A stretch of DNA of 64,000 bases from Neophaeotheca triangularis (taxonomy: Eukaryota): positions 248,001-312,000 of the forward strand of contig BAAIJX010000017.1 of assembly GCA_054600435.1 (NCBI GenBank), in the 5' to 3' direction. The notes below the pieces were generated by a model. The model did no database searches. It was not told the DNA's origin and saw only the letters and a list, made by a program, of their open reading frames with translations. Positions 9,038-43,856 of this stretch are shown here, piece after piece. Position numbers and translations under genes: made by a program. The stretch's first letter is position 1. Every line of letters starts with the position of its first letter.

Positions 9038-9820
9038 ACCGACCGGCGGGGCATTGGCCGAGGGGAGATGCGACGTGAAATGAAGCATGAGGTATCACGT
9101 ACAACAACAACGACAAGTTAGTCGACAGTATGGCGACGGCGGCATCAGACGGTGGTCGCTGGTGGTTGATAGGTGGTTGATGGTGTTGGATGGACAACCA
9201 TTTCTAGACAGGCGGCACGCATTCACTGACCGTATGTAGAAATTGTATGCGAAGTTTTGCCTCTTAGTCAGTGCACGTGAGGGGATGGTGGATTAGAGTG
9301 TCGCCTCACGGCGGGCCGCATCGTGTGCGACTTCAATCGCCTTTCCAAGCTTGTTGCTCTACCGTGGTCTATCCATTCAAGCGGGTCTTCCTCCACAAAG
9401 CGTGGATAACCGACCATCCGAGCTCTTATCGCGCGTGGAGGCCGACCGATAACGAGAAGCTTAGCATCTCGTCCAACTCGTCAAGATAATCGCGCTACAT
9501 TCTTTGGGGTAATCTTTTGCCCGCGCCTGTGTCTGAACGTGTTTCTGTCATTTTGTCCTCTTGTCTCTTCCCGTTCCCTGGGGAAGCATTGTTGTTCTTT
9601 TACCACCGACCTCATCCCCTCCTCTTTGCTATTCCTTTCCTACAACTCACTCGACAAGCAAGCAAGCACAAACACGCAGCTCAATCCCCGAGCTTCCCGT
9701 GCCACCTTGACCTTTACGACGACGACGACGACTCTCACTGGACGAGCCTCTAAATCTCTGAGGTTGGGTGCACAGCACAGCTCTCTCTTGACGACTATAG
9801 GTATAGCATAGGCACGCAAG

Positions 9821-15443: not shown

Positions 15444-15659
15444 TATAAGAGGGAGAATTCCCTTTACATGATATGTAAGCTATATGTGATCCGCACGAGC
15501 TACGCTTAGCACCTATAGCTAAATATTAGCTAAGTCGGGTACCTATACATAAGTTCCTTAAGAAATATTGTACATATATTATAGTAGACACATTTCTATC
15601 TCACGCTATTAATTAGTATTATGCTATATATATTCTATATTAGACAATACACCCTTACA
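15444..15659 (+). repeat. 5' LTR of element A
   Basis: T(A/G)TAAGAGGGAG...CCCTTACA. Near-identical to 42030-42245, differing almost only by transitions. Confidence 0.95.
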
Positions 15660-20173: not shown

Positions 20174-20528
20174 TATCGTGGTAACTCCTATGCTGTATTT
20201 ATAGGCGGGCTAGTTTTGCGGTATTTGCTTTGTCATTACCCCCTTTACATACTTATACCTCCCCTATACTAGCACTTATATCTTAGACACCTACCGACCT
20301 AGATAGACACGGAATGAATTGCGACTGCTTAAATTAGCCTTTATGCACTATAACCGACCTAATTGATTTCTGACCCCCGACGTATTATTCGTAACCGTTA
20401 CGAACAATCCCTAATTCTCGACTATACCCGATTCCTAATGCTACTACATTGTTCATAACCATTATGAACAATACCTCTCCGAGTAAAAACTAGTCTCCCG
20501 GCTTATCGAGTGTTTACGCCGCACGACA
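20174..20528 (+). repeat. 5' LTR of element B
   Basis: Direct repeat of 39882-40237 (transitions plus one C-run indel). Contains two 25-bp palindromes. Confidence 0.95.
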
Positions 20529-21207
20529 TATTTAGAGCCGAAGGTAGGGCGATCGCATATTGTCTTCGTCCTAATAGCCGAACCTACGCTCTAGGAATTA
20601 TACCTACTATAAGACTACCTAGCTTATAGAACTTACCCTTCGATAAGGGAACTAGAAAAGGGACTCGATAACGCGATAGCGGCGCTACGGTTAACCCTAA
20701 GAAACCCACTACCCTACCCCGCTATTCTCCTATCCTAACGAAATGACGATAGCGGCTTCTAGATAGCCTAGACTACTACTTACTGCTTTAGCTTTTCTCG
20801 CCCTTACCGTTCTACTTAGCCTAGATACGGTTATCTACGCTACGTAAGGTTTTAGACTGTTCGGTATTATCGCCGAAAACTTAATAGAGCTTTAAAAATG
20901 TAGAGGCCGGAGTCTCCCGCGACGACGCTCGTCTTATTTTAATAGAGGTAAACCTTCTACATGCTACCGGAGAATCCGGACCTTTAGGACCTCTAGTAGA
21001 GAAAAGATATCATCTCGGCTATAGATCGAAGAAAGACTACGAGGTACCGCTTAAGATTAACTTCGCAAATTCACTACTAAGAACATCGCTTACATTCTTA
21101 GCTTCCTTACTCGGTCTATTGCTTATATGTTCTAAGATTCTACTATTTTATTTACGCCGCCTTACTATTATTACTGTTTCTAGAAAACTGAACAAATAAC
21201 TTAAAAT

Positions 21208-24200
21208 ATGTCTAACTCCCCTCTCGATATTTCCCTTACCCTAGAAGACATGTAGGACGCGGGGCCTACTACTTCCTCGGCACTATCTACCCCCGCGCTT
21301 ACCCTAGGATCTAGCGGGGACGGCCCCGGGGCGTCCCTACTGTCGCGTCCCGCTAATACCCTAGGGTACGTGATTACGGCGTCTCCCCCGAGCCCCTACG
21401 AGCCTAGAGCGGCCTACTTCGATAGTAGTAACCTTACGAGCTTTATGCGGAAGTATAAGAAGATATGCGTGTAGTTTAGGTTCGACTCCTATCGCGTAGC
21501 CGAACTACTCGATAGCTACGTTAGCGACGAGGTCTAGGCCTAGGTGTTAGACCTTAAGCACGACAGCTCGTTAGTAGGCGTCTTCGCTACTATAAAGGTT
21601 AAGTTCGGGGATTTCGACTTGGAGCGACTTACCGGAAGTGTAGAAGTACTCGCGGGTTTCGTAGCTAAGAGTAAAGCCGCTAGCTATCCGAACGGGATCC
21701 TAGAGTATGTTCGTAGTTTCGAGAGCATTGTCTATAAGGCTAAAGATTAGGGGAACCCTCTTAGGGGACTAGAGATTATAAAGCACTTCCTCTATGGTTT
21801 GCCTTAGAACTTATAGGAGCGTCTTATCCGGCGGTTCTAGATTAATCCGCTTATGTCTAGCGAGTCTATTAAGTACCGATAACTATTCGGGGCTATCGAG
21901 GACAAGGTCCGTGCCGACTAATCCTTAGAGATGTTAAATTCGGTTTATAACGCGATGGCCCGTATAGAGGCTAGCGAGAAACCTATCGTATATACGCTAG
22001 TCCCTACCGCGGCATTCCCGGCGCCGGCTTTCGGGAGCTAGGGACGTCCTATACCTAACTTCCCTAAACAGCCTACCTCTAAAAAGGAAATAGACGAACT
22101 AGTAGCTAAGTTCAAGACGCTTAAGTTAAACGCTATAGACCTAGCTATTATAGTTAAGAATGCGGGCTACTACGGATTTACTATATCTAACATTCTAGCC
22201 GGCGCCGCGACTAATGTCTTCTAGGCAGCTCCGTAACCTTCCTTTCCCGAACGGTCTACTTACGCCCCTACTACTACTACCCCTAATTTTAATAACTACA
22301 CGTAGTATCCTAGTTAGGGTTATAGCGCTCCTAATGCTACCTACGGAACGGCGCTAGGAGGCTACTTTATGTATAGCGGCCTATACGGATAGATAACTTA
22401 CCCCGGATTTCTCGAGCTTGTTAATAAGGGACTCGTATACTCTAACCTAAGTAGTAAACGTATCCGATAGGGATCTGTTTAAAACCCGGGAGATGAACTC
22501 TAAAGGCTTCTATAGGAAAACCGGCTCGATACTATTAAGTAGAAGATTGAACGGGGCGAGAACCGGTTCGTGCCCGTCGCCGCGTAGGGTCCCGCGGTTC
22601 GCTTTATGACTATACTCCCTCTATTATCCCGTTCCGACACCTCCGAGGACGAGGACGACGCCTCTTTATATCTAATGTAGACTCGATCTAGCCCGGGGCC
22701 GGTTCAAGATCCGGACGCGAGAGTGTACAAGAAGCGAGTTGCTCCTAAAGTCCGCGTGACGAGGCCTAGCGAGTACGAGAAGCTAGTAGACAGCGCGACT
22801 TATGAGAAAAGCTAGACTATTCCCCGTAACTCGCTAATTAATCGACTAGTCGAGGAAAGGGACACCGATGACGAAGACTAGTAACAGCCGGCGCCGCTAG
22901 GGACAAAACAGTAGGCCTCGAGACGTACGAAGCTCCTCGATATCCTTATCCGAAATTAGTGCGATAACGCTACGATACTAGAGATACTCCTTAGCGGCGA
23001 TGTTACCGTAAACCGTATAGACGTCTTAGCGAAGATACTAGGTGTCTAGAAGCTACTATTTAGCCCGCTACCCGAGGGGCTAGCTAACGATGTGTAGCGA
23101 GAAATAGATATAACCGCTACGTAACGGCGCCTTGCCCGTAAAGCGAAGAAGTCTACCGCTAGAGGTGCTTCCGTGTTGCCTACTATTACCGCAGCTCATG
23201 ATTCGGTCGATAGGCGTCGACGGAATGCTACCGCATTAAACACTACGTTACTCTATATAACCGCCTATGACATCGACAATCTTATAGGAGAGGACCTAGT
23301 TTATCGTAACGACTCCCTAGTCTACGAGATAAGGATCGGGAAGACTAACGTAACTATGCTCCTCGACTCTAGCGCGGATATTAATGTTATGACGAGAGAC
23401 GTGGCTAAACGCGCTCGACTACTAATTACGAGGTTACCGTCTTCTATTAGTCCGGGCATTATAGTAGCAAATAGAGATGTAGTCACCTTTATTAGGTAGG
23501 TTCCTAACGCGCCCGTTTAGGTCGGCTAGGTCGTTATTCGTACGCCGATGCTAGTAGTAGAGTAGTTATCGAAACCCTATATCCTCGGAGAGCTATACGC
23601 CTACCGCGCTTCCCTCGAAGTTCGGAGGAATCCGTTAGGCAAAGTTACCTACTAGGTCACTAGTAAGGATAGCTTAGCGACTATAGACTTTATTCCTAGT
23701 ACGGGGATTCGTCGACTAGTAGGCTTAGATTCTAAGGCTAGAAACCATTTCTCCCTTAATAGTGTTAGCATATATACGGTACGTGTAGATCGGAGCGCGT
23801 CCTCTATTTATTCGTTAAAAGGTAGGGCGGACAAGTAGGTTCGATTACTACTACTAATACCTACCGAGAACTAAGCAAATCATTATTCATAACTACTACG
23901 AATAATCCTAGCTTTCACGAAGCGACTAATAACACTATGACGACCCGAGCATTGTTCGCAACTACTACGAATAATCCCTCCGGTCACGTAACACCCGGAC
24001 GCTCCGCTAACTCCGCGACTAGTACCCGAGCGTTGTTCGTAACTACTATGAACAATCCCTCCGGTCACGTAACACCCGGACGCTCCGCTAACTCCGCGAC
24101 TAGTACCTAAGTATTATTCGTAACTACTATGAATAATCCCTCTAGTCACGTGACACCTAGACGCTCCGCTAACTCTACGACTAGTACCCGAGTATTGTTC

Positions 24201-24436
24201 GTAACCGCTACGAACAATACCCTAGGTAGGGTCTCCTACGTATAGAGGTTAAGCATGATAGCGGATAGTGTAAAGCTCTCGTAGAGTGTAAAACCTTTAG
24301 AACTTATAGCGCTCGCCTCCGACCCTACCTTATTACCGAAGGAGAATTTCAGTGTTATGACTATAGCTAAACGGAAGGCGGACAAGGTAGTGCCTATCGA
24401 CGACTCGAGTGCTATCCCCTCTAAGATTCCTAGTAG
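21208..24436 (+). pseudogene. Element B gag, protease and start of pol, RIP-mutated
   Basis: ATG 21208. AYFD(G)SNLTSFMRKY gag-like motif. CCHC CFMCGGPHGQNNC (corrected) at ~22363. Protease MLLDS(G)ADINVM at ~23356 in the gag frame. AKRKADKVVP pre-RT motif in the -1 frame. Confidence 0.8.
23882..24218 (+). repeat. Tandem array of 5 palindrome-containing units (period 69, 81, 81, 81 bp) inside element B pol
   Basis: Cores at 23882, 23951, 24032, 24113 and 24194. The 81-bp units are near-identical and frame-preserving (ALFVTATNNPSGHVTPGRSADSATSTR-like). Confidence 0.9.
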
Positions 24437-24659
24437 TGTTACGACCGCGGCGCTAGCGGGACATCGGCGGCCTAAGCTATAGAGTAGCTCGGGAGTACTA
24501 AGCGTACACACTATAAAAGTATATGAGATAGCTAATAGTGAAGTCTCCTGTCTACTATCGAATAGTTTCTATATTAAAGGACTATTACTATTATTACCAT
24601 TATTACGCTCTGCCCTCGCTCCGCCGTAGTCCTAACCGAGTTATAGTCTCGGTCTTACA
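24437..24659 (+). repeat. 5' LTR of element C
   Basis: TGTTACGACC...GGTCTTACA; direct repeat of 31978-32200. Confidence 0.95.
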
Positions 24660-24769
24660 ATTCTATTCGATCTTAGAACCTTTTCAGGTTAAGATTCGCT
24701 CGGACATTATAGTACTATCGCGCTCGCTATACCCTCGGGTTAACGACGCTAACCTAGTAGACTCCCCTA

Positions 24770-27700
24770 ATACTATAACCGGAGTTAACACCCCGTAAGA
24801 ATAAGAAGAGGTAGCGACGGACTAATACACGGTCCTTACTACCGCCATTACGGAACTCTAATAGTAATTAGTAGAGCGTATAGCGCCTATTTAGCGAGCC
24901 GCTAATAGAGCGACGGTCCCCCGCAACGAGTCCGAAAGAGGACATATCGAACTAGAGGACCTAGTAGACATTGCCCCTACCCTAGTAGTATGTAAGTAGA
25001 CGGTAGATGAAGATCTACCTGCTAGCGTAACGATAAAGGAGCGAAAGTCTTATATCGATATCGAGAAAGCTTTTCGCTCGGCTAAACTAACGGTTTATAG
25101 GAGTTATCCTAATCTCCTAAAAGTATAGACGTTTATCTAGCAATGTGAGCATGTGTTTAAGATATACCCTTATGTTTACTTTTACTAGTATAAGCGTGTC
25201 TAGTATGCCGTAGGCCGCCTATATGGCCGCGTCGGCTAGAACTAGGAGAGTAAAGAATCACGACTCGAACGCGAAGAGATAAAATAGCCTATATTTAAAG
25301 AATGGCTACTAGATTAGATCCTCGGCCCCGAAAACCGCGCTATAAATATAGCGTTCCGAGGTTTTAGACATGTTTAGGGGGCGACCTAATCTATTCACGA
25401 CTACCTCTCGTATGTCGAAGACTCCCTCCGCGAGGCCGACGTCGCCCTACTACTAGAGTATACGCTCCTTACCCTCGTTAAGATAGGTCTACAGGAAAAT
25501 CTTAAGGCCAAGCTAAATGCTTAGCCGACAGTACTAGACAACCGGTATAACCTCGTCGCGCTTTATACGCGCCTCGACGATACTAGCCGCGGCGGCCGGG
25601 ACGCTAAAGGCGAGATGGCGGATAGGCCACGTAAGACCGACTTAAGAGGTTTTAGCTATAAGAAAAGAGAACAAAACTAGAGTATAGGCGATAACAACTC
25701 TAAACCGCGCCGCTAGCATACCGATAGAATACTAGCGACCGGTGTAAACCGTATAGGTACGACCTACGGTAGCGAACGAAACAACAAAGCCCTCGAAGAA
25801 AACCTTTGTTTCAAATGCGGCAATAAAGGCTACTAGTAAGAAAATTGCCGAAAGGGAAAAGCTTAGCCCTAGGTCATTCAATTGTTAGCCTTAAGGGCTT
25901 AGGGCGGCAAGTAGGCAGTACGTTAACGGAGCGCCTATAGGCTATTATAAAGATATACGATCGTACCTATGACGGGCTACGCTTCGAGGCCCGCGGGCTT
26001 ATCGACACGGGAGCGTATTATAATGTCATCTTAGGAGACATCGCGGTCCGGTATAACCTGCCGATAAAGGGTAACTAGATTCGTAGGCTACGAGCCTTTA
26101 GCGATGTCGAAGCCCTAATAGTAGGCCGATGTCGACTCTATACTAAAGTCGCTAATTTAGACGGTATGGTTTAAACTATCCCGTAGATGTTCGAAGTAGT
26201 GAACTAGAAGGATTATGAAATGATTCTTAGAATGCCTTAGATCCGATCTACGAAAGCATAGCTTAACTTCGCGTCGCCGCTAGTGTAGTGGCGCTATAGC
26301 GGCGTATATAATAAAGAAGAAGTCGAAATCATCGAGGCCGAAGAACTAGCCCGAGATATTAACAGTAGAGCATCTATCCTCGCCATTAGCGTAGAAGACC
26401 TACGCGGGACCCTAGCGGAGCCGTAGGTACCCGAGTAGTTAGCGGAATACGCTAGGGTGTTTAAATCGGAGAAGGCGAAAGAGTTACCTCTACATACACT
26501 TCACGACTACTATGTCGAACTAGTCGAGGGAAAAAACCCTCCTAGTAGACCGATCTACCTATGCTCCGAGCTAGAGCTTAAGGAAATGTAGTCGTAGATT
26601 AATAACCTGCTTGCGACGGACTACATTAAGCCTAGTACTAGCCCCGCTAGCGTACCGTTACTGTTCGTTAAGAAGAAAAACGGCAAACTTCGTATATACG
26701 TCGATTACCGCGGCTTAAACGAAATCACTATTAAGAACAAGTACCCTTTACTGCTTATTAGTAAACTCTTAGACAGAGTCCGCGGATTAACGTGGTTTTC
26801 GAAAATCGATTTAGTCGAGGCATACTACCGTTTACGTATCGCCTAGGGCGACGAGTAGAAGACGGCGTTCCGCTATTAGTACGGCCATTTTCAATATAAG
26901 GTTATGCCTTTCGGACTCGCTAATACACCGGCGTCGTTCTAGGCCTTTATTAATAAGGTTCTTATAGAGCTAGTTAACCATTACTACGTAGTATACATAG
27001 ATGACGTTCTTATCTATTCCCGTACTGAAGTAGAACACCGCGAACACGTTCGAGCGGTCTACCGTCGGCTCGCTAACGCTAAGCTGTATACTAGCCTCGA
27101 GAAATGCGAGTTCATGGTCCGAGAAATTAGATTCCTCGGTTTTATCATTAACTCTACCGGAGTAGCGATAGAGCCCCTACGGGTAGCCATAGTATAAGAT
27201 TAGCTAATGCTAAAGTCCTTAAAAGAACTCTAAGTGTTCCTAGGATTCGCGAATTTCTATCGTCGCTTCATCGAGGGGTATGTAAAGATTACCGCTCCCC
27301 TTACGGACTACCTACGGCATAGCGGCGGTAAATGGTAGCCACTAGGTAAAGATACCTAAAAATCCTTTAAAAGGTTAAAGCATAGCTTCATTTTAGCACT
27401 AGTACTACGGCACTTTAACGCTACGCTAGAGACCCGCCTTAAGACCGATATATTAGGATACGTATTAGGAGGCATACTCGCGTAGAAGTACTCGGACACG
27501 CTATAGCATCTAGTCGCATATTACTCTAAGAAGCTTAAAGGGCTAGAGTTACGATATCTAGTGCACGATTAGGAACTGCTCGCTATCGTCGAGGCGACGC
27601 GCTAATAGTAGCACTACATATTGTCGGCTAAGAGTAAAGTTTAGGTGCTTATAGATCATAATAATCTAAAGTACTTCCTATCGACAAAGAAATTGTTAGG

Positions 27701-29790
27701 CCGCTAAGCGCGCGCCGCGGAAGAGCTATCGTAATACGACATCGAGATCATATACCGTAAAGGTAAATCAAACCCTAGAGCAGACAGTCTCTCGCGCTAT
27801 CCTAACATAGAGGCTAATAGAGAATTAAGTGGGGCGGAAATGCTACCTACATTAACTAGGCTTTTCGCTCCCCCGGCGGGCTACTATAAGGCCGCCGAAG
27901 TTCCGGCGAGTAGCCGTACGACGGCCGCTAAAGATAGAGTAGAGATCCTATCTATATCGCTAGGATACGTAGCGCCGGTAAACTACCGGGCATTAGCTAC
28001 CTCGCTAGTAGGCTACACGATAGCTACTAGAGACACCGGTCCTCTAAATAATAAGCTTTAGAGTAATGATACTATGTACACTAAGCGAACGCTCTAAGGG
28101 GGAGGTAAACTAAACCCGACTAGCTCTATCGCTATAGTAGCGCTAACCTATCATGACCCCGTGGGTAAGTAGCTAGGTATACTCGCTATTACCGAGCTAG
28201 ACATTAGAGAGCCTAACGTGGCGGTAGACTAAATCGACCTTAGAGCGGATGTGTTACGCGTATAGTAGGGAGACCCCTTTACTAAACGCATTCGTAAAGA
28301 GATCGACGAGGGACAGTACTATAGAGACGCCGACGGCGCCGCGCCTACATGGTCGGTTAGTTTTACGGGACTTCTTAAAATTAATAGAAAGGTGTATATA
28401 CCGCCGGTAGAAAGCCTACGGGCCGCCGTGCTAAGCTACTACCACGAGGACCTATTAGTAGGACACCTAGGAGTAGGGAAGACTAAAGCCGTTTTCTATA
28501 AGGAGTTTTAGTGGTCTAAGTAGACTAAGGATGTCGAAGAGTATGTCCTTAGGTATAACACCTACTAAAGACATAAGTCGCGCCGCTACCGGCCCTATAG
28601 CGCATTATAATCGCTAAGGGTTCTAGGTGCTAATAAGATCTTCAAGCATTAGTCTATAGACATAGTAGTTAAGTTGCCTGTCGTAGAGACATATAAGGGC
28701 GAAACAGTCGATTCTGTGTTAGTCGTTATTAACTACTTCTTAAAGTTCGCGAGGTATATCCCTATTAGCGAAGCGATAGGGGCCCGCTAACTAGCCGATA
28801 TTTTCGAGCACGAAATTCTTATAAAGTTTAGTAAGCCGAAATCGATTATAACTGACAGAGGCAGTATATTCACCTCCGCATTTTAGATAGAGCTCCTTCG
28901 GTATTAGAAAACCGAGCGCAAGTTATCGACGGTATACTACCCTTAGTCCGACGGGTAGACGGAGAGGCAAAACTAAATAATAGAACAGTATCTACGATGT
29001 TTTGTTAACTTTACATAAACAGATTGGCCTTATTACCTCGTATAGGCTGAATTCGCCTACAATAATAGCGTAAGCGTATCGACTAGAATGTCGCCGTTCT
29101 TTACCGTCTATAGGGCGGAGCCCTAATAGCCCGGCGGCGTTATAGATAACGCCGTCGGAGAGGGAGGTAGCGAACCGACAATCCCCGACCTCTAAGAAAG
29201 AACCGAAAACCAGAAAGCAATTCGCAAAGTCGTCGAGGAGAATATTCGGCACGCTGTCGGTAAGTAGGCAGAATACCACGACTAAAAACACGATCCTATA
29301 GTATTTAGTGTCGACGACGAGGTTCTTATTTCCGCGAAAAACCTAAAAACGTTAAGACTAACTAAAAAGTACTCCTCGCGTTATGTAGGGCCCTTCCGAA
29401 TCGTAGTAAGGGTCGGAAAACAAGTATACCGATTAGCCCTACCTCTATACCTTAGAAAGATCTATAACGTCTTCTATGTCTCTCTCCTCGAACCGTACTA
29501 CCGACGCGCCGACTTCGTACTACTAGCGGAGCGAGAAGTCGATAGAGGCGGCGAATAGGTTGTCGACGAAATAACGGCATCCGGTCTCGACGACGACGGC
29601 GACAAGATGTACTAGGTTCTTTAGAAAGATTAGCTAATAGAAGAGGGTACCTAGGAGAAAGAGAAGTATCTAAATAACGCAAAAGAAGCGATCGTAGACT
29701 TCGAGTAACACTAGCGGACCCACGGCAGCGCGAAAAAGAAGCGTAGAAAGAAAACATAAAGCCCGAAGAAGAAGAATGTTAAGAATACAT
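24770..29790 (+). pseudogene. Element C gag-pol with chromodomain, RIP-mutated
   Basis: CCHC CFKCGNKG(H)..ENC at 25807. Protease GLIDTGA at ~25996. RT LFVKKKNGKLR..VDYRGLNEITIKNKYPL and VYIDD at ~26991. Integrase (HPQ)SDG(Q)TERQN. Chromodomain E(W)VVDEI...(W)KD(W)...T(W)EKE at ~29550-29700. Ends approximate. Confidence 0.9.
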
Positions 29791-29972
29791 AGCTAGGGAA
29801 AAAGAAGAAAACTATAGGAAAAGGACGTAGTATACAAGCTTCTTAATTAACAGCTACTACGGACGGGCTAGCGATAGGATAATAGCGCTTATAGAGAGTA
29901 CGCAAATGATTAAACAAACGCTTAAGCCCTAGTGTCTAACTCCTTCGTAACCTTAGCAATATTAGCCTATAG

Positions 29973-31264
29973 CTAATCTTCGGCACTAATAGACTCCTCT
30001 ACATTCTTACCTGCCGACGGAGCGGCGTCGTCCCCATAGCGTATCCGAAGGAAGCCTAAGAGACTAGAAGGCTTCTTCGGAGCCTTATCCTCCTTATCTA
30101 GCTCCGACGACGAAGAAGAGCTTTCCCTAGAAGATACCTCTAGCGGCGTACCGGCGTCGCCCCTACTACTCTTCCGAACTAGACCCTTAGTCTCTACCGT
30201 AGGCACCTTAGGGGCTACTACCGGCGCCGGCGTACCGACGGTCTCGTCGTAAGGCGGTAACGTATTAACACTAGGCATATCGCGTACTAGCGAAGAAGAA
30301 GGCGCGGCGCGACGGCGGCTAAATATCTCGCCGATAAGCATAGACATTTCCGTGCGGTAGACGGCGATAAGCCTCTCGATAGCATTAGTAACGATCGTAG
30401 CGAAGTCGCGAGTTTAATCCGTAATCAGGCGTACTATGTCGTGCGGAGTCAAGATCTTATCGTTATTAGGACCGGAACGACGAAGGCCCCCCGTTAGGAT
30501 AACGGCGCGGTTATTTTTATAGAAGTACTAGGAGACCTTAGCGTCGACTTCTAAGACCTTTAGGTATATCGGCGAATTAGCGTCGGAACTACCGGTACGG
30601 TTAGCGCGATAGAGCATAGTAGTATGGTTTATCTAGATATAGTAGGCGCGCTAGCTAGCGAGGTTAGGAATGATCTAAAGAGACGTTAGTGAAACTCGTA
30701 ACGACGATAGAGCTACGGCGGGCTTACCTCGACGCATGATTACTTCGCGTTAAAGTAGGTATTATATACCGATCCGGTCGCGGAAGGCACTATCTTATAT
30801 AGCGGGACGAAGTCGACGGACCTAGCGAGAACGTTACTTAAGAGCTCCTTAATGTAGCGCGAATAACGAGGGCGATTAACATTAATAGGAGTAAGCTCCT
30901 TACCCTTATTAATGTCGGCGAAACGACGGAACGCCGGCGTACCCTTATTAGACCTACTCTCCTCACTATTATTACCCTTAGCACGCTTACGTTTCGAGCC
31001 TATACCCTTAACGGCCGCAGCGCGCTTCGTACCAACACCCTCCGACTTTAAACCCTTCTTAGTAGACTTCGACTCGTTAACTAGATCCTTTAACTCCTCC
31101 TCTATAAAACTACTAGCGGCGATCCGACGGCGGCCCTTAGTCATAAAGACTCCCTTAGCGACAATCGCGCTATCTATAGTAAAGGCACCCTTACTATTAA
31201 CGGCTATAGCGCTAACGCTATAGTCGACTAGCGCCTTCGGACGCTTACTAATACATAGAGGCAT
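29973..31264 (-). pseudogene. Element C antisense intron-containing gene with Cys6 zinc-finger-like motif
   Basis: ORFs 30740-31264 and 29973-30347 join through a canonical intron 30727-30675 (GTAAGC...CTAAC...TAG). Corrected RPRCSRC...PLC...SVCNTCFNAKQSCVE. Basic NLS-like GSKRKRAK; Ser/acidic tail. Confidence 0.7.
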
Positions 31265-31977
31265 AATGGAACGGCAGTAGAGTAGTAAAGGCAGTGAATA
31301 AAGTTAGCGAAAAAGGCGATAGCGAGATCGCGAAAAAGTGGTCGATAAAGAAGGAAAGAAGGTATCGGAGGTACAAGGAGCGCCTTTTTGTTAAACTGCG
31401 CTAGGTAAGGTTTTCGAAAGGTTACCGGAAGCAGGTAATAATAGGAAACTAGGTGAGGTTAGTTTCATTATCGAAGAACAATAGGAACCGTATACGGACT
31501 AATAGTAGCGCGTACATAAAGAACTAAAGTTCACTTACTAATAAAGAAGGTCACCTTGTTAAAAGGCAGACCGGCACGCCGAAGGGACTACGATAGAGTG
31601 GAGGCTGTTGTTATTATTATAGTTAAAAGGAGGAAGTCTTCGAAAGAGAAGCGGCCGGCAGGTCACCTCCGCGTAATCATAGCGTAATCACGCTAAGGCT
31701 CCGCTAGCAATTACCGCTCCGCTAGATTACCGCTATATAGCCGTTAATACCGCTTATCGCGACGATAACGTACCTCGCCGTAGCGAACTTAGGTTTAGGG
31801 TGAATTTACTCCGGGGACCCGACGGTACGACGGCAGTACGCGGTATCACTCTTTTCCTTAGTAAAGACACTACCGAGGTTTTTAACGAGGATACTAACAT
31901 ACACGCTATAACGGGGTCTCGCATAACTATACTTATAAGTGCTAGCTCGAGGACGAGCTACTAGAGAGGGAGGTAAT

Positions 31978-32200
31978 TGTTACGACCGCGGCGCTAGCGG
32001 GATATCGGCGGCCTAAGCTATAGAGTAGCTTAGGAGTACTAAGCGCATATACTACGAAAGTATATGAGATAGCTAATAGTGAAGTCTCCTATCTACTATC
32101 GAATAGTTTCTATATTAAAGGACTATTACTATTATTACTATTATTACGCTCCGCCCTCGCTCCGCTATAGTCCCGACCGAGTTATAGTCTCGGTCTTATA
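31978..32200 (+). repeat. 3' LTR of element C
   Basis: Direct repeat of 24437-24659, followed by the TSD AGTAG. Confidence 0.95.
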
Positions 32201-32205
32201 AGTAG

Positions 32206-35200
32206 ACAGTTAGATTAGCTTAAAGAAAGCTATAGAGCGCTAGATTAAAAGCATGCCGAAAAATCTTGTCGCTTACTCTAAGTACGATAGCTACTTCGAA
32301 CCGCGATACATATAGGAGCTAAGGGGCTATAGATTAACCCTAGAACGAATAGCGGGAGTAATAGTTAACATCACGCTCTTGCCGGAAGAACGTCGGCTAT
32401 TCGAAGTAATGTTAATAGCCCGTAAGCCGGCCCTTACGTAGGACTTTAAGGAGTATAGTATAATCTACGAAGATGTATGCCCTCTAGTTAAGATAAGAAC
32501 GGTGCCCTATAAAGCTTAGTAGGCTAAGACATATCCCGTGCCGAAAGCTTTATCTAGGGAGCTCGTCGAGATGTTAGAAGACCGACTAAAAGCCGGTGTC
32601 CTTAAGTATAGCTAAGGGCAATACCGGAATCCTTAGTTTCTAGTTAAAAAGAAGAACGGTAAACATAGGCTAATTAACTCGGCTACCATTCTAAATTCGG
32701 TTACAGTTTGAGATACCATGATACTACCGGACCTCGCGAGCTTCGTCTATTATGTTACGGGTAGACCGCTCCTCTCGCTATACGACGTCTTCTCCGGGTA
32801 TAACGAAATCCGTTTACACGAAGAAAGCTAGGACATAACGGCTATTATGACTCCGTTAGGGCTCCTAAGGCAGACAACGCTACTAATAGGCTAGACAAAC
32901 TTAGTAGCCGTCTTTTGTCGAGCTATGATGTAGATGCTTATAGTGCTATATCTACATGACGCCGTCCCGTACGTCGACGACATTGTCGCTATTAGCGACT
33001 ATAGTGACTCCTAGGGCGACCCTAACCCTTTGCCCGGTATCCGGCTCCTAGTCTATAACTATATCCGGAAACTAGACCGGCTACTCGTAGACATAGAGCG
33101 AGCTAGATGTACTATCGCTATAGGGAAATCGCACTTCCTTTCCGAGGAGCTTAAGGTTATCGGCTTTATATACACGCCTAACGGTACGAAGCTATCGCGT
33201 TTAAAGGTTAAAGCTATCGCCGAGTGGACTAAGTGTCGCATATTGCGTGAAGCTCGTGGCTTTATTAGAATGTATACGTACTACAAGTAGTTAATCTAGG
33301 GATTTACATAGTATACAAGACTAATTATTACGCTTACACGGAAAGATATACCCTTCATCTAGGGACGGGAACAAGCCGCGGTAATAGCGGACCTAAAAGA
33401 GTAGCTAATGAAATTCCCGATAGTGGCCCCGGTTAAATATAGCGTGAACGTAGGCTAACTAGTTCTTATAGTCGATGCGTACGGTACCGGCTAGGGACTT
33501 TACTTATAACAAGAAGTTGCTAGCGCGAAAAGACGAGTTATCCGGTACGATAGCGGTCTCTAGAATAAGAGCGAGCAGAAGTACGATACTATTAAGCTCG
33601 AGTACTAGGCGTTAATGATCGCTCTTAAAAGGTTACGGCTATACCTTTACGGTACGAGGTTTGTAGTCGAAACAGACGCTAACACGCTAGTTGCCTAGCT
33701 TAATAAGGTTGCCTCGGACGTGCCGAATACCATAGTAACTCGCTAGCTAGCTTAGATTTAACTATTTGATTTCGACGTGCGACACGTCGCTAGTATGAAA
33801 AACGTTATCGCTAATAGCCTATCCCGGAAGTCTAATGGGCTAGCTAATACTAAAGATATCGACGACTAGGTTAACGTCTATCTCGACAGCATTTCGGTAG
33901 GGCTGCCCCCGGGACTAGGCCTAACGCCTACTAGTCGCGAAAACAAACCGCGGACCTTAGCGGTAGGGCTACCCCTAGGACTAGGCCTAACGTCTACTAT
34001 TAGTAGAAATAGAGCACCGGCCTTAGCGGTAGGGCTGCCCCCGGAGCTAGTCCTAACGTATACTAGTAACGAAAATCGAGGATCCGTATATATAGTAGGG
34101 TTACTCCCGGTATAGGGCCTAACGCCCGTAAGCGACGAAGACGGAGCTTCGACTCCTTCCGATAGGGAGGGGGAACCTACCGACGACAATATACTCGACT
34201 CTACCTACTCCGAGTACTCGTAAAATGTCGCCCGCTAGCTCACGACTATACGAAGGCCCGTAGACCTATCTAAATCGGAGTTCCGGGCATTTAAGCGACA
34301 AGCGATACGATTCCTAGTCTATAGTAACTAACTGTTTCGCCGCATAAATAGGAACTAGCTATTAACTCGCGTAGTAGATAGAGAGCGGAACCGACTACAG
34401 ATAATAAAGGAACTTCACGATAAGGGTAGTTACCGCGGAAGAGAAGGGACATACCGGAAAGTAGTAGATAGGTACTAGTAGGAAGGCATATATAATACTG
34501 TTACGGCGTATGTTAAGACCTGCCGGGAGTGTTAGCTACGTATACGGAACCGATTAGAAGAACCGCTATACCCTACCTATATAAACGTAGTAGGTAGGAA
34601 GTAGGCCGTCGACCTAGTACGAATACCGGAATCCCGTACTTTCTAGTATATTGCCCTTACCTAGGAAGACGTGTCCGGCTAGGTAGAAGGCCGACCACTA
34701 CATAACACCGAGAGCTATAGGCTAGCTCGCTTCCTTTACGAGGATATCGTAACTAGACACGGAGTGTTCGGGAAACTAGTCTATAATAGAGGCCCGGAGA
34801 ACTAAGGGTAGACTACCGTCCTACTCGAAGGATACGGTATCTAAGACATCACGATCTCGCTATATTACCTATAAGCTAATAGTATAGTGGAACGAGGCTA
34901 CCCGACTATCGTTAACGCGTTAGCTAAAGCGAGTCGAGATACCGGACGACCGTGGCCAGACCTACTCTATAGCGCGCTCTAGGCTAATAGGACTACCGTG
35001 CGAGCTACTACTAGTATGACTCCGGTAGCCGTGATCTATAGTAGGGAGCCTGTCCTACTAGTAGAGTTGTTATTCCCGACCTAGTATAACATTAACTAGA
35101 ACGGCGTTTAAACGACGGAAGACCTACTAGTAGCGCGGATAAAGTAGCTCGAACGTTAGGATAAGAAGATAGACGAAGCCCTTCTACGCTTACGACGCTA

Positions 35201-35670
35201 CCGCGAGTTTAATAAGAAGTACTTCGATAAGACTTACTAGACAAGGCCGGAAGAATTAACTATTAGTGATCTAGTGTTACTCTTCGACTCGGTGCGTAAT
35301 ACTGATATAACGGCGAACCGCAAATTCTCCCCTCGCTAGCTTAGTCTATATCGCATCAAAACGGTCTAGGAGAATATAGGCTCGTACCGACTCGAGGAGC
35401 TTAATGGGACAGTACTAGATAAGCCGCATACTAGTCGACTATTGAAATTGTTCTATCTAAGACCTAATGCACTCGCGATACGGGACGAAGACGACGTAGA
35501 TAACATAGAGGAGCGGGACTCGATATATAGGGGTAACGCGTCTAACCCTAAGGACATCGTCCCGGCTACATAGGAAAGGCCTCGTAGGAGCTAGCGGTTA
35601 TAACCGACTACCGATACTACGCTAGTACCGAGGCGGAGTGGTACTAGTTTCGTCTCGATTCCTAGTATTT
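32206..35670 (+). pseudogene. Element B pol (RT, RNase H, integrase; no chromodomain seen), RIP-mutated
   Basis: YRNP(W)FLVKKKNGKHRLINS; TPLGLLRQTTL(PM)G(W)TN; YVDD at 32970-32981. RNase H RYDSGL(W)NKSEQKYD. HHCC ELHDKG(GH)RGREGTY...CREC. Core (YHPQ)AN(GM)VERG(H). Confidence 0.88.
33895..34125 (+). repeat. 66-bp in-frame tandem repeat (3.5 copies, VGLPPGLGLT) between RNase H and integrase of element B
   Basis: Units begin at 33895, 33961, 34027 and 34093. Confidence 0.85.
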
Positions 35671-35735
35671 AGTATGACCCGATAGAGTATAAGCAATTTG
35701 GTGACCTAGATTCCGATGAAGATTAGTATTACTAC

Positions 35736-36062
35736 ATTGTTCGTAACCGTTATGAACAATAATGGGCCTAATACCGCGTACCCTTATAACACCTTAGCGA
35801 TGCCGTCGAGGCTCGTCGTATTATTCGTAACTATTATGAACAATGCCTTCCGTTACCTTATAGTACCTCGGCAATGTAGACGAGGCCGTCGCATTGTTCG
35901 TAACCGTTATGAACAATGCCTACCGTTAACCTATAATGCGGAGTTATCGCCGCGGCCGCGTTATATTGTTTATATCCGTTATGAATAATGTCTCCCTTTA
36001 CCCTATAAATTCTTGGCGTTACGGCCGAGCTTATCACATTGTTTATAACCGTTGTGAACAAT
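35736..36062 (+). repeat. Array of 5 copies of the 25-bp palindrome ATTGTTCGTAAC-C-GTTAYGAACAAT with 47-59 bp diverged spacers
   Basis: Cores at 35736, 35820, 35893, 35965 and 36038, between the end of pol and the extra ORF. Confidence 0.9.
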
Positions 36063-36756
36063 GATTACTTTTACCTCTATAACACTTTAGTGTTACATGC
36101 CGCGTGTCGGCTAATAACGTGTAGTCACTACTCGTATTACTAGCGTATAAGTTAGTAATATGTAGTCGACACATGCTCCGCTAGCCGACGTAGCTACCTA
36201 TAAAAGAGGCCTCCCCCCCTACTCTACTCCCTCTACCTCTCCTCTCTCTCTAATAGTAACTACTACTACTACTACTACTCCTTCTTCTCTTTCTTATACC
36301 GAGACATTATTAACACTAACTACACTACCCCCGTCTAACTAGCTGTTATTAGTAACACTACTACGAGAACCTTCGAGAAGTTTAGCTTCACTTCTAGAAG
36401 GCTTGAACTACCTACTCCTACCGGCCTTTTACGACATCTTTAAGCTCCGGAGCCTACTACTCCGACACCTCTATCCTTCTCGATACCTCTATCCTTCTTA
36501 ATACTTCTAACACCTCCGTCCTTTAGTGCCTACACCTACTTCCTTACTTCACATTCTTCTAAACCTACGACTTTACCGACACCTTTTCACTTTAATACCT
36601 ATACCGATACCGACACTAATACCGATACCGATACCGATACCGACACATCTTAGCGCGCGACACACTAAGCAACTAACTCTACTTTTCTTCTTCTCCTTAC
36701 TTTCACATCTCTCTCTCTCTCTCTCTTTCCTACATTTAAGATTAAGATTGCTAACT

Positions 36757-39700
36757 ATAGTACCTAAGGAGTCTACTCTAAAGCGCCTATAGGCGAGTTC
36801 CTAAACCGGCTCCGGATTAGGTAGTTCGAATAAACTAGTAGCTCCTAAAAGCCCTCGCCTTACCTATAGCAGCTAGCCTACTACGCGCCCTACTACTACC
36901 TCGGCCGCGCCTACGACTATAACCGCGCCCGCGCCCGACACTACTATAGTAGCGAGGTCTACCGATACGAGCGTCTACCGAAACTAGGGAGTAACTAACG
37001 ACTAGGGAGCTCCTATACTCGACACGTAGCGATATACCTTGAGCTTTTCCGGTATATAGCTTAAAAACACTATAAAGGAGATGCTGTAAAAGATAACTAC
37101 TATAACCGACCTATACGCCTAAGATGCTACGTAGCTCGCTATGCTTAAGATAGTGCATAAAGCTAGCGAAGACTAGGACATGTTAGCGTACATAGTAGAT
37201 AACTATACACGAAGCGACCCTATATAGGCCCCGAAAAGAGCTAAGTTTAGGAAGGTTAAAGACATGGCTGCCCGTAGCCTCGCGACCCGTATATTACTCG
37301 AAAGGAGAACTTCCTCTCTTCGTGTAGGCTAGTTAATGCCGCCGAAGCCGTCGCTTCGGAAACCATTAACCGCATCTTTATAGCTCTAGAGAATGTGTCC
37401 CGGGGATTTATCGATCTCGCTAAATATACCTAGACATCCGAGTAGATGTTCCGGAAGCTACGTACTACTACTAGTATCTAGCTTATACGTAGGCTTGTTA
37501 AGGAAACTCCTATAGGTTAACCGACTAGTAGGAAAGGGAAACTACTCCGCGCGTTCTTCTACACTAAGGCCGACTTTAATTACGCGGTAGGTATAGACTA
37601 GATATCTAAGTTTACGACTAAGCGGACTACCGACGAGCTATAGGACATAGTAGGGGAACTAATTGAAAAATACAAAAGGGTACGCCTAAATGATCGCGTC
37701 CTATACCGAGGATAGGATAGCTAGCTCTCTTTCCTTACCCGTCCTATAGCCCCGACGATACCTAAAGCCCTAGAGACCCTACGACGAGAAGGGCGCTTCG
37801 TTAGTACTATCTCCCCGAGCCCTATAGGATAGCCGCGATCTCGAAACACTAGTATGCCACTAATGCCTACGATTAAGGAGGATGTAGCATCTCTAGTGTC
37901 TACGTCGGAGGAGCTTCGTCGCTAGCTCTAGGGGTATTACTAGCTAATGTAGCCCTCGCCTACGCCTACGTCTACTACCTTAGCCCTTCGTACTCGTACT
38001 TATACCCGGTCTACTAGTGTAGGAACGTTAGCTCCGTCCCCGGGCATGTTAGCTCTACCCCCGGGCATATTAGCTATACCCCCGGGTATAGCCCTAATGC
38101 AAGTAGTACGAGGACCCTAGCTTAGCGAGTTACCCTCTCTAAAGCCGGAAGAGATCCGAGTAGTTATAGAGGCCTAGTTTGCTAGTAATGCCGCATGCGG
38201 TAGTCTACGCGGCGGCCGATATACGTGTAAGGTAGATAAGATAGCCCTACTATAGTTACGGGTCATGCTTAGAGCCGATAACGACTAGCGAACCGGTTTC
38301 CGTATTGCCGTAGAAGATAGGGATCGTATAGAGTTATGTACTAGCTATAGTACCTACCACTATAGCGTGTACGCGACCTACCGGAGACTAGTAGCGTAGA
38401 GTCTTAGGCTAGTTATCTAAGGGAAAGATACGAAGACAACCGACGACTACATCTTCTACATCGCGAAACTCCCGAAGCAATCCTAGAAAAACGTCGTTCG
38501 TGGTAGTATCCGCTAGTTTCTAAACACCGAAGTCTAACGCCTACTAGGGATCTTAGCTAACGTTAATAACCTAGAGACTTTCGCGTACAAACCGGTTAAG
38601 TCTAGCGTAATACGCTACCTCGACAATGACTAGAAAGCGAGGATTACGGAAGGACTCGGCATTACGGTCGCCTAGCGCAAAGAATAGGAAAGGAACGGTA
38701 CTATTAACATTCCGGATTTATTCCCCGAGCTACTAGAGGTTAAGGACCTAATCAATAGCGAGTTTAGCATGTACGACGCCTACCTATAAAACAATATGTC
38801 TAATAGGGGCTAGTGTAGAAATATGTACTACAGCCTAATTTAATAGTACCTTCGCTAGAGCCTAGTGCTAATCCTACTATATGCTCTCTTACGCGATAAC
38901 GGCTTACTTTAGCTAGTGTCCTACCCGTATTACACTAAGAACTAGCACCCTAGGGACTCTACTAGATTTAGGCATATCGATTTGAACCCGGTGTTTACAT
39001 AGAATAACGGTACCGGCGTGTATACTATTTAGGGTAGCGTTAGCATCCTTAATGAGTTTAAGGACGACTATACTATAGTGGTTAAGGGGATATACTAATG
39101 CCTAGAGGAGTGGACGGACTTCCTCGTTACTAATAACCTAGACTATAAGAAAGAGATTATAGCTGTCGACGACACGAACCTGCCGAAAGCTTAGCTCTTA
39201 GCCCGGGGTTTAAAGTAGTAGCCGGTCCCCTATAAGGCCTTCGAAGTTCGCGTTTCTAACCTACGCCTACCCTATAGCACTACTACGTCAAAAGCCGTTC
39301 GCTAACATATAACCGTCCTACCCTAGTTCGTAGGAATCGACCGAGACTATAAGTACCTATAGAATGCCGCTAGTAGAAAGTAGAGCGATATTACTACTAC
39401 ATACCGCGACTTCGTGCCTAGCCCGTTAAGTGCCTCTAGTTACACTACTAAGTATAGAGCTCCTCGTGCACTATTTCCCGCGACCCTACATCTAGCGGTA
39501 TAGGATGCCTTATCTAGAGTAGCCGTCGGCGAATTACGGTATACGAGCCCTAACGTCTAGTAAGTACTACGCACTATTACTACGGAGAGCCCGCGTTATA
39601 TCTAGAAGTACATTTAGGAAATCCGGGATAACGCTATTAAGGCGTACGAGCTCGCCTAGACATATTAGCGAGACGAAGAGAAAAGGGTGTTTTAGAATAA

Positions 39701-39857
39701 GTCGTTCTACCGTTCGGAAAGTTCTAGCTCCGCTCTACCGCTATAGGATAGAGGCAAGAGGGGAGCTATACTAGTAGGATAGGAGGAGCTTATAGAGGAA
39801 ATGTAGGATAAGGAGAACTTAATAGTGGTTTAGGGTAGCGCGGCTACTACGGAGTAG
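36757..39857 (+). pseudogene. Element B extra ORF (~1000 codons) with C-terminal Fe(II)/2-oxoglutarate dioxygenase-like (PhyH-type DSBH) domain, RIP-mutated
   Basis: Single frame from ~37300 to the stop at ~39857, with stops only at RIP-type TAG/TAA codons. The 5' part (36757-~37290) is offset by one frame. Motifs: LVSYPYYTK, FRHIDLN (HID intact at 38973-38981), I(Q)GSVSIL.E..DD(C)T.VVKG(MH), P(C)KAFEVRVS..RLP(HG) (39273-39278), (R)ITVLP(W)FV. Confidence 0.7.
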
Positions 39858-39881
39858 CGAGACTTTCTAGCTAGGGAGGGA

Positions 39882-40237
39882 TGTCGTGGTGACTCCTATA
39901 CTACATTTATAGGCAGGCTAGTTTTGCGGTATTTGCTTTATCATTACCCCCTTCACATACTTATACCTCCCCCTATACTAGTACTTATATCTTAGACACC
40001 TACTAACCTAGATAGACACGGAATGAATTGCGACTACTTGAATTGGCCTTTATACACTATAACTAACCTAATTGATTTCTAACCCCCGACGCATTGTTCG
40101 TAACCGTTACGAACAATCCCTGATTCTCGACTATACCTGATTCCTAATACTACTACATTGTTTATAACCGTTATGAACAATACCTCTCCGAGCAAAAACT
40201 AGTCTCCCGGCTTATCGAGTGTTTACGCCGCACGACA
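39882..40237 (+). repeat. 3' LTR of element B
   Basis: TG...CA termini intact, followed by the TSD CTAC. Confidence 0.95.
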
Positions 40238-42029: not shown

Positions 42030-42245
42030 TATAAGAGGGAGAATTCCCTTTACATGATGTATAAGCTATACGTAATCTATACGAGCTACGCTTAGTACCT
42101 ATAGCTAAATATTAGCTAAGTTAGGTACCTATATATAAGTTCCTTAAGAAATATTATATATACATTGTAGTAGACACATTTCTATCTCACGCTATTAATA
42201 AGTGTTATACTATACATATTCTACATTAGACAATACACCCTTATA
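42030..42245 (+). repeat. 3' LTR of element A
   Basis: Direct repeat of 15444-15659, followed by the TSD GTTAG. Confidence 0.95.
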
Positions 42246-43148: not shown

Positions 43149-43856
43149 AGCGGTCTATAGACTACTATAGAGACATATAGTATAAGGGCATAAAGTCTAG
43201 TTATATAGGTTATGTGATTACGCTAACTATACTACTAGTTATACCTTGTAGATGTGCTACATCTGCTCTTTTTACAACAATCGAACGATCCGCCATTTTC
43301 ACATCCGGCTCCTACTGCTAGACCTACTACTACATCCATGCTAAGAGCACTACATCCGTAGATGTGAAACTGGACAAACGAACGCGCCCTAAAAGTGTCA
43401 CATTGTCACATTGTCATGCATATGTGTCGTTGCAATAGTTGATCCGACGAAACTCATCACTTCGATCGTCGGCTCGACGAAATGGTGTTTGGAACTAGAA
43501 GTGGTATTAGTCAATTGATGGCTGCATATATGTGTTGCCAACGCGTTTTGTTACCGTGATCTTGACTGCGAGAGATAAAATCCACGATCACATGTGTGAC
43601 TGTTAAAAGCCCAAAAACAGCCTTCGATTAGCGCCGTCCGGAGGCCATCCAATCAGCGATCGCCAGTACTCTCGTCAAGCAAAACTGGCCCAAGCTCCCA
43701 GAAGTCGGACTTTACACGCATCTCCTCCGTCCGCGTTTGCGCAGGTCAAAACAAAATACCTGCCACTCAACTTCCCATCCGGGTAACAAACACTTCTCTC
43801 TCACTCACTGTAGTTCTCTTTCGTTCCCTTTATCGGTGAGCACAGAAGGGGCCATC

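Follow-up and report, generated by a model that had tools for sequence, protein, structure and literature searches.

Family-specific palindromes accompany a putative PhyH-like dioxygenase gene in a degraded Ty3/gypsy element of Neophaeotheca triangularis and in other transposon-borne loci

Self-defence of transposons against host silencing is known from very few systems, and its cis side in fungi is unknown. In the VANDAL21 elements of Arabidopsis, a transposon-encoded protein, VANC, is paired with a short family-specific motif that has been multiplied into tandem arrays within the family and differs between related families; the binding of VANC and the loss of methylation were both shown by experiment, whereas their counterparts in the system described here are putative. 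We analysed a stretch of 64,000 nucleotides of Neophaeotheca triangularis (assembly GCA_054600435.1, contig BAAIJX010000017.1, positions 248,001 to 312,000 of the forward strand), hereafter the window, in whose numbering positions are given. It contains element B, a ~20-kb Ty3/gypsy long terminal repeat (LTR) retrotransposon on the plus strand, which is degraded by repeat-induced point mutation (RIP), is interrupted by a nested gypsy insertion and carries 14 copies of a 25-bp palindrome. The remains of three open reading frames (ORFs) can be followed in B, and the third, ORF3, appears to encode a dioxygenase. Family-specific motifs in arrays were found in B (14 sites) and in a second dioxygenase locus, L012 (11 copies in three clusters). 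In contrast to these carriers, which are gypsy LTR and other elements attributed to fungi, VANDAL21 is a Mutator-like DNA transposon of a plant. VANC is also not a dioxygenase and its motif is short and not known to be a long palindrome, whereas ORF3 is PhyH-like; this comparison is one of protein class and motif form.

Fungal DNA transposons of the KDZ, Plavaka and other types offer a second comparison, as they carry a 2-oxoglutarate/Fe(II) (2OG/Fe(II)) dioxygenase of the TET/JBP family that moves as cargo between unrelated element types and is thought to aid the fitness of the element against silencing (PMC12730594). [quoted passage not shown] The enzyme considered here is different in that it is PhyH-like, is found in gypsy elements and is accompanied by palindromes. 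An LTR retrotransposon that acquired a 2OG/Fe(II) oxygenase domain is described in orchids, where Ty3/gypsy elements encode an AlkB-type N6-methyladenosine demethylase domain (PMC9289625); these elements belong to plants, their AlkB-fold domain acts on RNA, and palindromic sites are not mentioned in the portion of the article used here. By analogy, the system of palindromes and ORF3 would work most like VANC with the VANDAL motifs, as a member of neither the VANC nor the TET/JBP family.

The 14 sites fall into four clusters. Two lie in the 5′ LTR of B (20384-20408 and 20448-20472) and two in the 3′ LTR (40093-40117 and 40157-40181), 64 bp apart in both cases; five form cluster 2 (23882-24218, with sites starting at 23882, 23951, 24032, 24113 and 24194) and five form cluster 3 (35736-36062, starting at 35736, 35820, 35893, 35965 and 36038). 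One of the sites, that at 40093-40117, is perfectly palindromic (12+1+12). When the window was searched on both strands, a strict pattern allowing at most three mismatches recovered eight of the sites, whereas a pattern in which C/T and G/A were left free, so as to tolerate RIP changes, recovered all 14 with no extra match, and a transition-aware scan of the whole window returned the identical set. None of 100 dinucleotide-preserving shuffles contained any match by either the strict or the RIP-tolerant search, and neither a half-site search nor the transition-aware scan detected an additional full site or clean half-site elsewhere in the window. A sequence-only reading of this DNA had listed the same 14 sites and the perfect inverted repeat among them and had placed them within B exclusively; all of this was recovered, the restriction to B being upheld for the 64 kb analysed. 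Relative to the perfect copy, the sites together show 44 transitions and one transversion, and since the region bears the RIP signature, these departures are best read as post-mortem RIP damage. The exact palindrome gave no matches in metagenome, viral and prokaryote genome contigs, none of which constitutes a fungal genome set, and a text search of the literature with pieces of the palindrome brought up no paper on the motif, judging by title and the start of the abstract.

Palindrome sites precede each of the three ORFs and occur again after ORF3, in the 3′ LTR. Cluster 2 is built of 69/81-bp units with a variant core (C at position 15) and represents an 81-bp (27-codon) tandem repeat just beyond the ORF1 frame, in the part of the pol frame that links protease to reverse transcriptase (RT). 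The RT frame is nearly open there (23826-24437, three stops in 204 codons), each palindrome encodes LF(I/A/V)TT(T/M)NN, and the linker is ~210 nt longer in B than in an intact relative, L006. A role of cluster 2 as a stimulator of -1 frameshifting was rejected because it lies too far downstream, a stimulatory structure being expected to begin 5-9 nt after the slippery heptamer; its first palindrome is found ~40 nt past the last stop of the ORF1 frame, although the slippery site of B itself is not identifiable. In L006, the overlap of ORF1 and ORF2 (3497-3512) has GGGAAAC at 3503 and no palindrome after it. Cluster 3 starts ~10 nt past the last stop of the pol frame and occupies the spacer between ORF2 and ORF3, upstream of ORF3; its periods of 84, 73, 72 and 73 bp indicate that it is non-coding. 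A few bases beyond the cores of cluster 3 (35761-36100), we observed a partly kept stretch, YCCGTTACC..TATAA, which repeats the inner seven bases of the right arm of the palindrome and may be an extra partial half-site.

How well is the palindrome kept relative to its surroundings? In cluster 3, the core shows four transversions in 250 pair-columns, whereas the spacers show 106 transversions and 54 gaps in 527. In cluster 2, the core is not better kept than the spacer, because the three middle units are recent copies. The selective retention of the core that the sequence-only reading had proposed therefore applies to cluster 3 and not to the young middle units of cluster 2, while its remark that the flanks differ between clusters was borne out, the common flank being only 4-7 nt. 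For the same reason, the internal clusters were rejected as copied LTR segments.

Are such palindromes a regular companion of the dioxygenase gene? To answer this question, we used 80 metagenome loci with flanks that encode ORF3 homologues, retrieved with an alignment of 30 homologues. Judging from their RIP-like transitions and gene content, we infer that the loci are fungal. In 37 of the 80, a B-like RT or integrase is encoded on the same strand within 5 kb upstream, and 29 of the 31 pol-bearing loci examined have LTR pairs ~10.4 kb apart, which argues that ORF3 is a regular third gene of a gypsy clade. The intact element L006, whose LTRs are 99.6% alike, illustrates the arrangement: its ORF1 (gag-protease) shares 16 nt, which include GGGAAAC, with an ORF2 (RT-RNase H-integrase) in the -1 frame, and a spacer of 357 nt after ORF2 leads to an ORF3 of ~950-986 amino acids.

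None of the 80 loci contains the palindrome of B: the closest match to the entire 25-mer has six mismatches, and half-site matches are isolated. Instead, 34 loci, which we term family L and of which 32 have pol upstream, each carry one 13+1+13 palindrome, GATTTTCCATGCC-G-GGCATGGAAAATC, intact or worn by RIP; it sits in the ORF2-ORF3 spacer, ~190 nt upstream of the conserved ATG of ORF3. Two versions of it exist, ..ATGCC-G-GGCAT.. and ..ATCCC-G-GGGAT.., so that positions 11 and 17 co-vary: they read Y/R in 26 loci and R/Y in eight, and no locus among the 34 is mixed. As many of these contigs carry the same name prefix, the loci are copies of one family and not independent lineages; the co-variation represents one event, but a symmetric one. 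The half-sites of B and L006 are identical at 7 of 13 positions and differ by transitions at three more, and they occupy an equivalent place in the element, for which reason cluster 3 is probably the homologue of a single ancestral site upstream of ORF3. In another relative, L023, the palindrome lies in the linker between RNase H and integrase.

Two further features of the family-L spacer were observed. A second type of palindrome, AACTTTAACCG-C-CGGTTAAAGTT, occurs at L057:18488, L067:15329 and L069:15556; in at least one neighbouring element copy (L069), it sits 74 nt past the family-L palindrome, and in L006 it is degenerate. In addition, L006:7200-7330 and the aligned spacers of family L contain a conserved pyrimidine run ending in CAG, followed by AAG|GTAAGG. 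The two resemble a splice acceptor and a splice donor, so that ORF3 might, in the manner of env genes, be expressed by way of splicing.

Loci without a B-like pol match likewise carry private odd palindromes, some of them in arrays. L001, L002, L003 and L027 have TAATCGCAAGCC-S-GGCTTGCGATTA; L014, L015, L022, L007, L009, L029, L079 and L004 have each their own version, the imperfect one of L004 being detected only by transition-tolerant scoring; and in L038, longer palindromes whose centre comprises 2 nt lie on either side of the ORF. In L012, CATTTCCCAGCCC-N-GGGTTGGGAAATG (27 bp) is present in 11 copies in three clusters (4311-4526, 6514-6792 and 9701-9784), with four copies after one ORF and five before another, each group forming a 63-bp array, and two inside ORF3; of all loci, it is the closest parallel to the layout in B. 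A palindrome lies in frame inside ORF3 in L001, L002, L012, L014 and L022, in a disordered acidic linker, 78-97 residues before the CxC motif described below. A scan for identical perfect palindromes present at least three times per locus found none, L012 and L001 being missed owing to one G-T pair and to differing centres.

The association is also seen in counts. Across the 80 loci, 58 palindromes that are not AT-rich score at least 11, of which 35 have a 1-nt centre, compared with two in block-shuffled loci. The density of palindromes scoring at least 10 is 0.161 per kb within 3.2 kb upstream of the oxygenase domain and 0.059 per kb elsewhere. Among the 54 loci with at least 2.5 kb of this upstream zone, 27 have a palindrome scoring at least 10, and 16 more are RIP-worn copies of family L with the degraded form. 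We conclude that the palindromes are real, and chance or a mere satellite is a very unlikely origin. Since families with the gene have private palindromes and that of B is missing from all 80 loci, the sites appear to be a recurrent class of dyad sites tied to a transposon-borne gene for a PhyH-like dioxygenase. The sequence-only reading had proposed checking whether relatives with the dioxygenase carry family-specific palindromes of their own; indeed they do, with arms of 12-13 bp around one central base.

Could the palindromes nevertheless be functionless, spread within the element as selfish or neutral satellites by slippage or template switching at palindromes? LTR retrotransposons are known as sources of satellite-like arrays, all three B clusters are tandem arrays whose unit number varies between copies, and in-frame repeats without the palindrome, of 66 bp and 21 bp, are present in B as well. 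However, neutral spreading does not account for a core that is kept while its spacers diverge by transversions and indels, for a conserved position upstream of ORF3 with a symmetric, co-varying transversion in 34/34 loci, or for an architecture that recurs wherever the dioxygenase gene occurs. We therefore regard a functionless origin as improbable.

If the palindromes act, do they act as DNA or as RNA? We aligned 17 distinct palindromes on their centres, 16 of them taken from 14 loci and one from B. All 17 types have Watson-Crick pairs at +/-1, +/-2 and +/-3, and several pair types are found at positions +/-2 to +/-7. A hairpin is unable to pair the +/-1 bases around a single central base and gains little from those at +/-2, hence these positions would be unconstrained in a hairpin loop and folding of RNA or of a single strand does not explain the symmetry at the centre, which a dimer on abutting half-sites of duplex DNA does. 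An RNA role, be it in translation control of ORF3, RNA stability, or packaging or dimerisation of genomic RNA, finds some support in energetics, as the B core forms a stem of 11 bp (-10.0 kcal/mol) and two copies of it form a duplex (-31.6 kcal/mol). Also, the palindrome of L038 and L079 lies 35-70 nt before the ATG of ORF3, possibly in the 5′ untranslated region, and the few arm mismatches include G-T; the non-Watson-Crick pairs are, however, G-T mixed with others and show no strand bias. The palindrome class is not restricted to the genomic RNA of retroelements, since it also occurs in L001, L012, L014, L022 and L079, which have no B-like gag-pol match; this rules out retroviral packaging or dimerisation as its general role. 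Retroviral dimerisation initiation sites and Ty1 PAL are likewise self-complementary sequences of retroelements, but they comprise ~6 nt, lie in loops of the 5′ leader and act as RNA, whereas the palindromes here span 25-43 bp, are symmetric to the centre and occur at several places. The complementarity up to the centre, together with the presence of palindromes in elements for which no gag-pol was detected, makes a dimeric DNA-binding protein more probable than RNA hairpins. Thus, the packaging or dimerisation alternative offered by the sequence-only reading is disfavoured, and we consider an RNA role in general about as improbable as a functionless origin, although it is conceivable for sites within a transcript.

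A dimeric protein need not be encoded by the element. Host transcription factors could use the palindromes as enhancer or promoter of the LTR and as an internal promoter of ORF3, captured along with ORF3. Tandem factor sites are common in the LTRs and leaders of retroelements, as in the Su(Hw) sites of gypsy, in Tnt1/Tto1 and in the enhancers of murine leukaemia virus. Consistent with this, sites lie in the LTR, upstream of ORFs and before neighbouring genes (L001, 8107; L014, 6589; L022, 6941/7022), and dyad symmetry to the centre suits any dimeric factor. The Su(Hw) array of the Drosophila gypsy element is similar to B in being carried by a Ty3/gypsy-type element with about a dozen binding cores and variable spacers; it differs in forming a single 5′ untranslated cluster of a non-palindromic core bound by a host zinc-finger protein, whereas the sites of B occupy three kinds of location including a coding linker. 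Such places, the coding linker of ORF3 and pol, would be odd for a promoter, and a palindrome that changes from family to family while the gene stays fits a binder evolving with the element better than a host factor, although the hosts may differ. On balance, a host factor seems unlikely to us, yet it is the first alternative to an element-encoded dimer.

Which protein of the element could bind? ORF3 is the only gene common to all palindrome-bearing elements, which makes its product the most economical candidate. Its assignment as a PhyH-like 2OG/Fe(II) dioxygenase is weak and rests on distant similarity. The ORF3 region of B matched no Pfam family in three frames, and a word-based homologue search with this RIP-damaged sequence found none at E<=0.001. 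An exhaustive phmmer search with it gave 386 homologues at E<=0.001, of which 29 at E<=1e-30, all aligning to the C-terminal ~340 residues. Pfam PhyH matches were obtained for four of 14 homologues, three of them at or above the cut-off, and for two of eight ORF3 genes from the loci; the neighbours of ORF3 in the atlas are PhyH clusters at 0.86, a lead only. Among 30 homologues, H644, D646, H744 and R754 do not vary; they correspond to an HxD...H iron triad and to a basic residue that would hold 2-oxoglutarate. B retains RHID, while the position of its second His reads Y, a RIP-type change. Upstream of the oxygenase domain, C389 and C430 are invariant and C391 and H433 nearly so among the same 30 sequences, forming a CxC..CxxH motif. 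The Tet_JBP family of Pfam had no match in 14 homologues or eight locus ORFs (E<=0.01 and 0.001, respectively). The term dioxygenase used for this ORF by the sequence-only reading is thus reasonable in view of these results, even if the assignment is distant and B itself lacks a Pfam match. In the literature on dioxygenases in fungal LTR elements, we found no title describing the clade of B.

For the N-terminal 522 residues of L006 ORF3, AlphaFold gives confident models of a helical domain (~20-210) and of a zinc module (359-480), with a disordered linker (212-358) between them; modelled alone, the zinc module reaches a predicted local distance difference test score (pLDDT) of 91.5. In the fold search, SAP/LEM-like rows appeared at Z 3.0-3.9, which we take as a lead only.

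Based on these observations, the reading to which we give most weight, while holding it tentatively, is that the B palindrome is the family version of dyad sites that travel with ORF3 and are putatively bound by a dimer, with the ORF3 protein as the best candidate. A homodimer would occupy each palindrome in duplex DNA, with each half-site of 12-13 bp contacted by a single monomer. The protein would combine the helical N-terminal domain, the CxC..CxxH zinc module and the PhyH-like 2OG/Fe(II) dioxygenase domain, and its binding would recruit the oxygenase to copies of its own element, which it would regulate or relieve of a repressive mark; we infer that the sites might in this way mark copies as self. 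In the lineage of B, the single ancestral site upstream of ORF3 would have diverged and grown to five tandem copies, and would also have given rise to two copies in the LTR and to five in a permissive in-frame linker where pol begins. A still bolder version, in which gene and palindrome form a portable module of 'gene plus address', the N-terminal half of ORF3 reading the private palindrome, the pair hopping between fungal element types and the enzyme erasing a silencing mark on its own copies, appears doubtful to us. The idea of sites for a dimeric protein, already put forward by the sequence-only reading, thus gains from the palindromes private to each family and from their symmetry up to the centre, but no DNA-binding fold was found in ORF3.

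Several observations weigh against binding by ORF3 as proposed. With the N-terminal half of ORF3 and its zinc module, Foldseek returned nothing at E<=0.001, and an exhaustive aligner (VIA) reached best Z values of 4.8 and 4.5, within the noise for helical models. To our knowledge, there is no precedent for a PhyH-type enzyme acting on chromatin or DNA. The 17 palindromes share ancestry and are not 17 independent trials; most have a GCC-S-GGC centre, which could persist for its sequence alone, and independent centres are found only in B (AAC-C-GTT), L079 (GTG-C-CAC) and L057 (CCG-C-CGG). The sites of L038 and L079 close to the ATG of ORF3 are possibly transcribed. L050, a complete gypsy relative, has only an imperfect palindrome of 54 nt with a 4-nt centre in its pol-ORF3 spacer, and 11 of the 54 loci with enough upstream sequence have no palindrome by the criteria used; many of the other loci lacking a palindrome lie on contigs of 1.4-5 kb. 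Finally, the spread of multiple clusters into LTR and pol was found among the gypsy relatives in B only; in a count of 11-mers that covered 12 of the 31 pol-bearing loci, no multi-cluster motif like that of B was seen.

A last alternative concerns the movement of the gene. The palindromes could be recombination or nicking sites by which the dioxygenase gene is moved as a cassette between mobile elements. Indeed, the gene adjoins gypsy pol or RecQ-like helicases, or sits in an inverted-repeat unit. In L014, L022 and L079, genes for RecQ-like DEAD-box helicases adjoin it with palindromes in between, and L001:6194-12600 is a 6.4-kb unit with 71-bp inverted repeats at its ends (92% alike), which contains an ORF with an integrase core (Pfam rva_4), an ORF without a family and the dioxygenase gene. 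In L038, the ORF lies between related palindromes, and in L022 and L029 a palindrome closely follows the stop codon. However, many sites lie in the gene's own linker or in arrays distant from its borders, family L has a single upstream site, and no recombinase is common to the elements, which makes a cassette very improbable and the least likely of the explanations considered. As side observations, the helicase neighbours hint at a helicase-bearing, possibly subtelomeric, type of carrier element, and the unit of L001 resembles a DNA transposon with the same cargo. Taken together, a dimeric protein on DNA, with ORF3 as the best candidate, is the most likely mechanism, ahead of binding by a host factor, a function in RNA, neutral spreading and transfer as a cassette.

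The remaining anatomy of B is that of a RIP-worn gypsy element. Between 13.7 and 43.6 kb, TpA/ApT is near 2 and (CpA+TpG)/(ApC+GpT) near 0.32, compared with 0.7 and 1.2 in the flanks. The LTRs of B form a direct repeat pair on the plus strand, the 5′ copy (20174-20528) comprising 355 bp with TG..CA ends, its first TG reading TA, and the 3′ copy (39882-40237) being preceded by the purine run AGGGAGGGA, which fits a polypurine tract. In alignment, the two copies differ by 26 transitions, no transversion and one indel, and 4-bp CTAC is present on both outer flanks. A primer binding site matching a transfer RNA was not recognised in the RIP-altered sequence. The ORF1 remnant (gag and aspartic protease, 20888-23845, plus strand) is interrupted by RIP stops and gives weak Pfam protease matches below the curated cut-offs in the frame of 20890; tblastn with L006 ORF1 matches 21367-22155 and 22930-23700. 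The rest of ORF2 (RT, RNase H and integrase, 32222-35725, plus strand) was delimited by Pfam in the frame of 32202, with RT_RNaseH at 1.1e-15, Integrase_H2C2 at 2.7e-10 and RVT_1 at 1.1e-05, the latter below its cut-off, and tblastn with L006 ORF2 gives 41% and 39% identity. The domains of B thus follow the gypsy order protease, RT, RNase H, integrase. The ORF3 region (36100-39800, plus strand) ends in the PhyH-like dioxygenase domain at ~38688-39710, located by tblastn with L006 ORF3. This B copy was later killed by RIP, to judge from its sequence.

Besides the palindromes, two in-frame repeats were found in B. A palindrome-free 66-bp (22-codon) tandem repeat (33895-34075, plus strand) lies between RNase H and integrase and is absent from 37 related pol genes. 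In the linker of ORF3, a 21-bp unit with the core CCCCCGGG is repeated 2.9 times (38027-38092), and its last unit is a 9+2+9 palindrome (38073-38092). This repeat lies at roughly the position of the palindromes within ORF3 of L001, L002, L012, L014 and L022 and may be a relic of an ancestral palindrome within the gene, its placement relative to the zinc motif being estimated. Together, the 66-bp, 81-bp and 21-bp repeats indicate that all disordered linkers of B permit repeats to grow in frame.

The protease-RT linker of B is also the site of the nested, unrelated gypsy element (24437-32201, plus strand), which has 224-bp LTRs (24437-24660 and 31978-32201). Its net insertion amounts to 7770 nt, which is divisible by three. 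In run X1, two contigs connect 24436 to 32222 with 15 other letters in between and lack the nested element, so other B copies without it exist. Run X1 contains 70% of the words sampled from the 3′ half of B and 3798 contig pieces of at least 80% identity on the 20-kb stretch that covers B and the nested element; most of them differ from the window by C>T and G>A, which indicates that each family is present in multiple copies in this run. By summed contig depth in this run, the nested family is more abundant, at ~2x that of B. Joints at 23991->24088 and 24218->24169 reveal other copies with one 81-bp unit fewer or more, and other B copies likewise have LTR flanks joined to palindromes. In runs X2 and X3, which have the same organism label, no contigs aligned to the 20-kb stretch, the nested family included, which is not proof of absence; either the strains differ strongly in transposon content, or a filter removed the contigs. 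Around B, a 214-bp direct repeat pair (15444-15657 and 42030-42243, 91% alike, 26.6 kb apart) probably represents the LTRs of an outer element hosting B, which would give three levels of nesting. An open frame of 1260 codons (43632-47414), with 63-66-bp tandem repeats at 44115-44287, begins where the RIP-affected block ends and represents the host gene beside the transposon nest.

In summary, the locus offers a concrete pair for testing, a palindrome of 25-27 bp and one candidate protein, for which intact natural relatives exist and natural 'specificity swaps' between families can serve as controls. It points to a PhyH-like oxygenase as a regular third gene of a gypsy clade, to functional DNA sites that can lodge in frame inside disordered coding linkers, and to one accessory gene that has spread with its site among very different genomic contexts. 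If the portable module of 'gene plus address' exists, it would represent a fungal counterpart of VANC, realised by a different protein, and the first anti-silencing oxygenase borne by a retrotransposon with a defined cis site.

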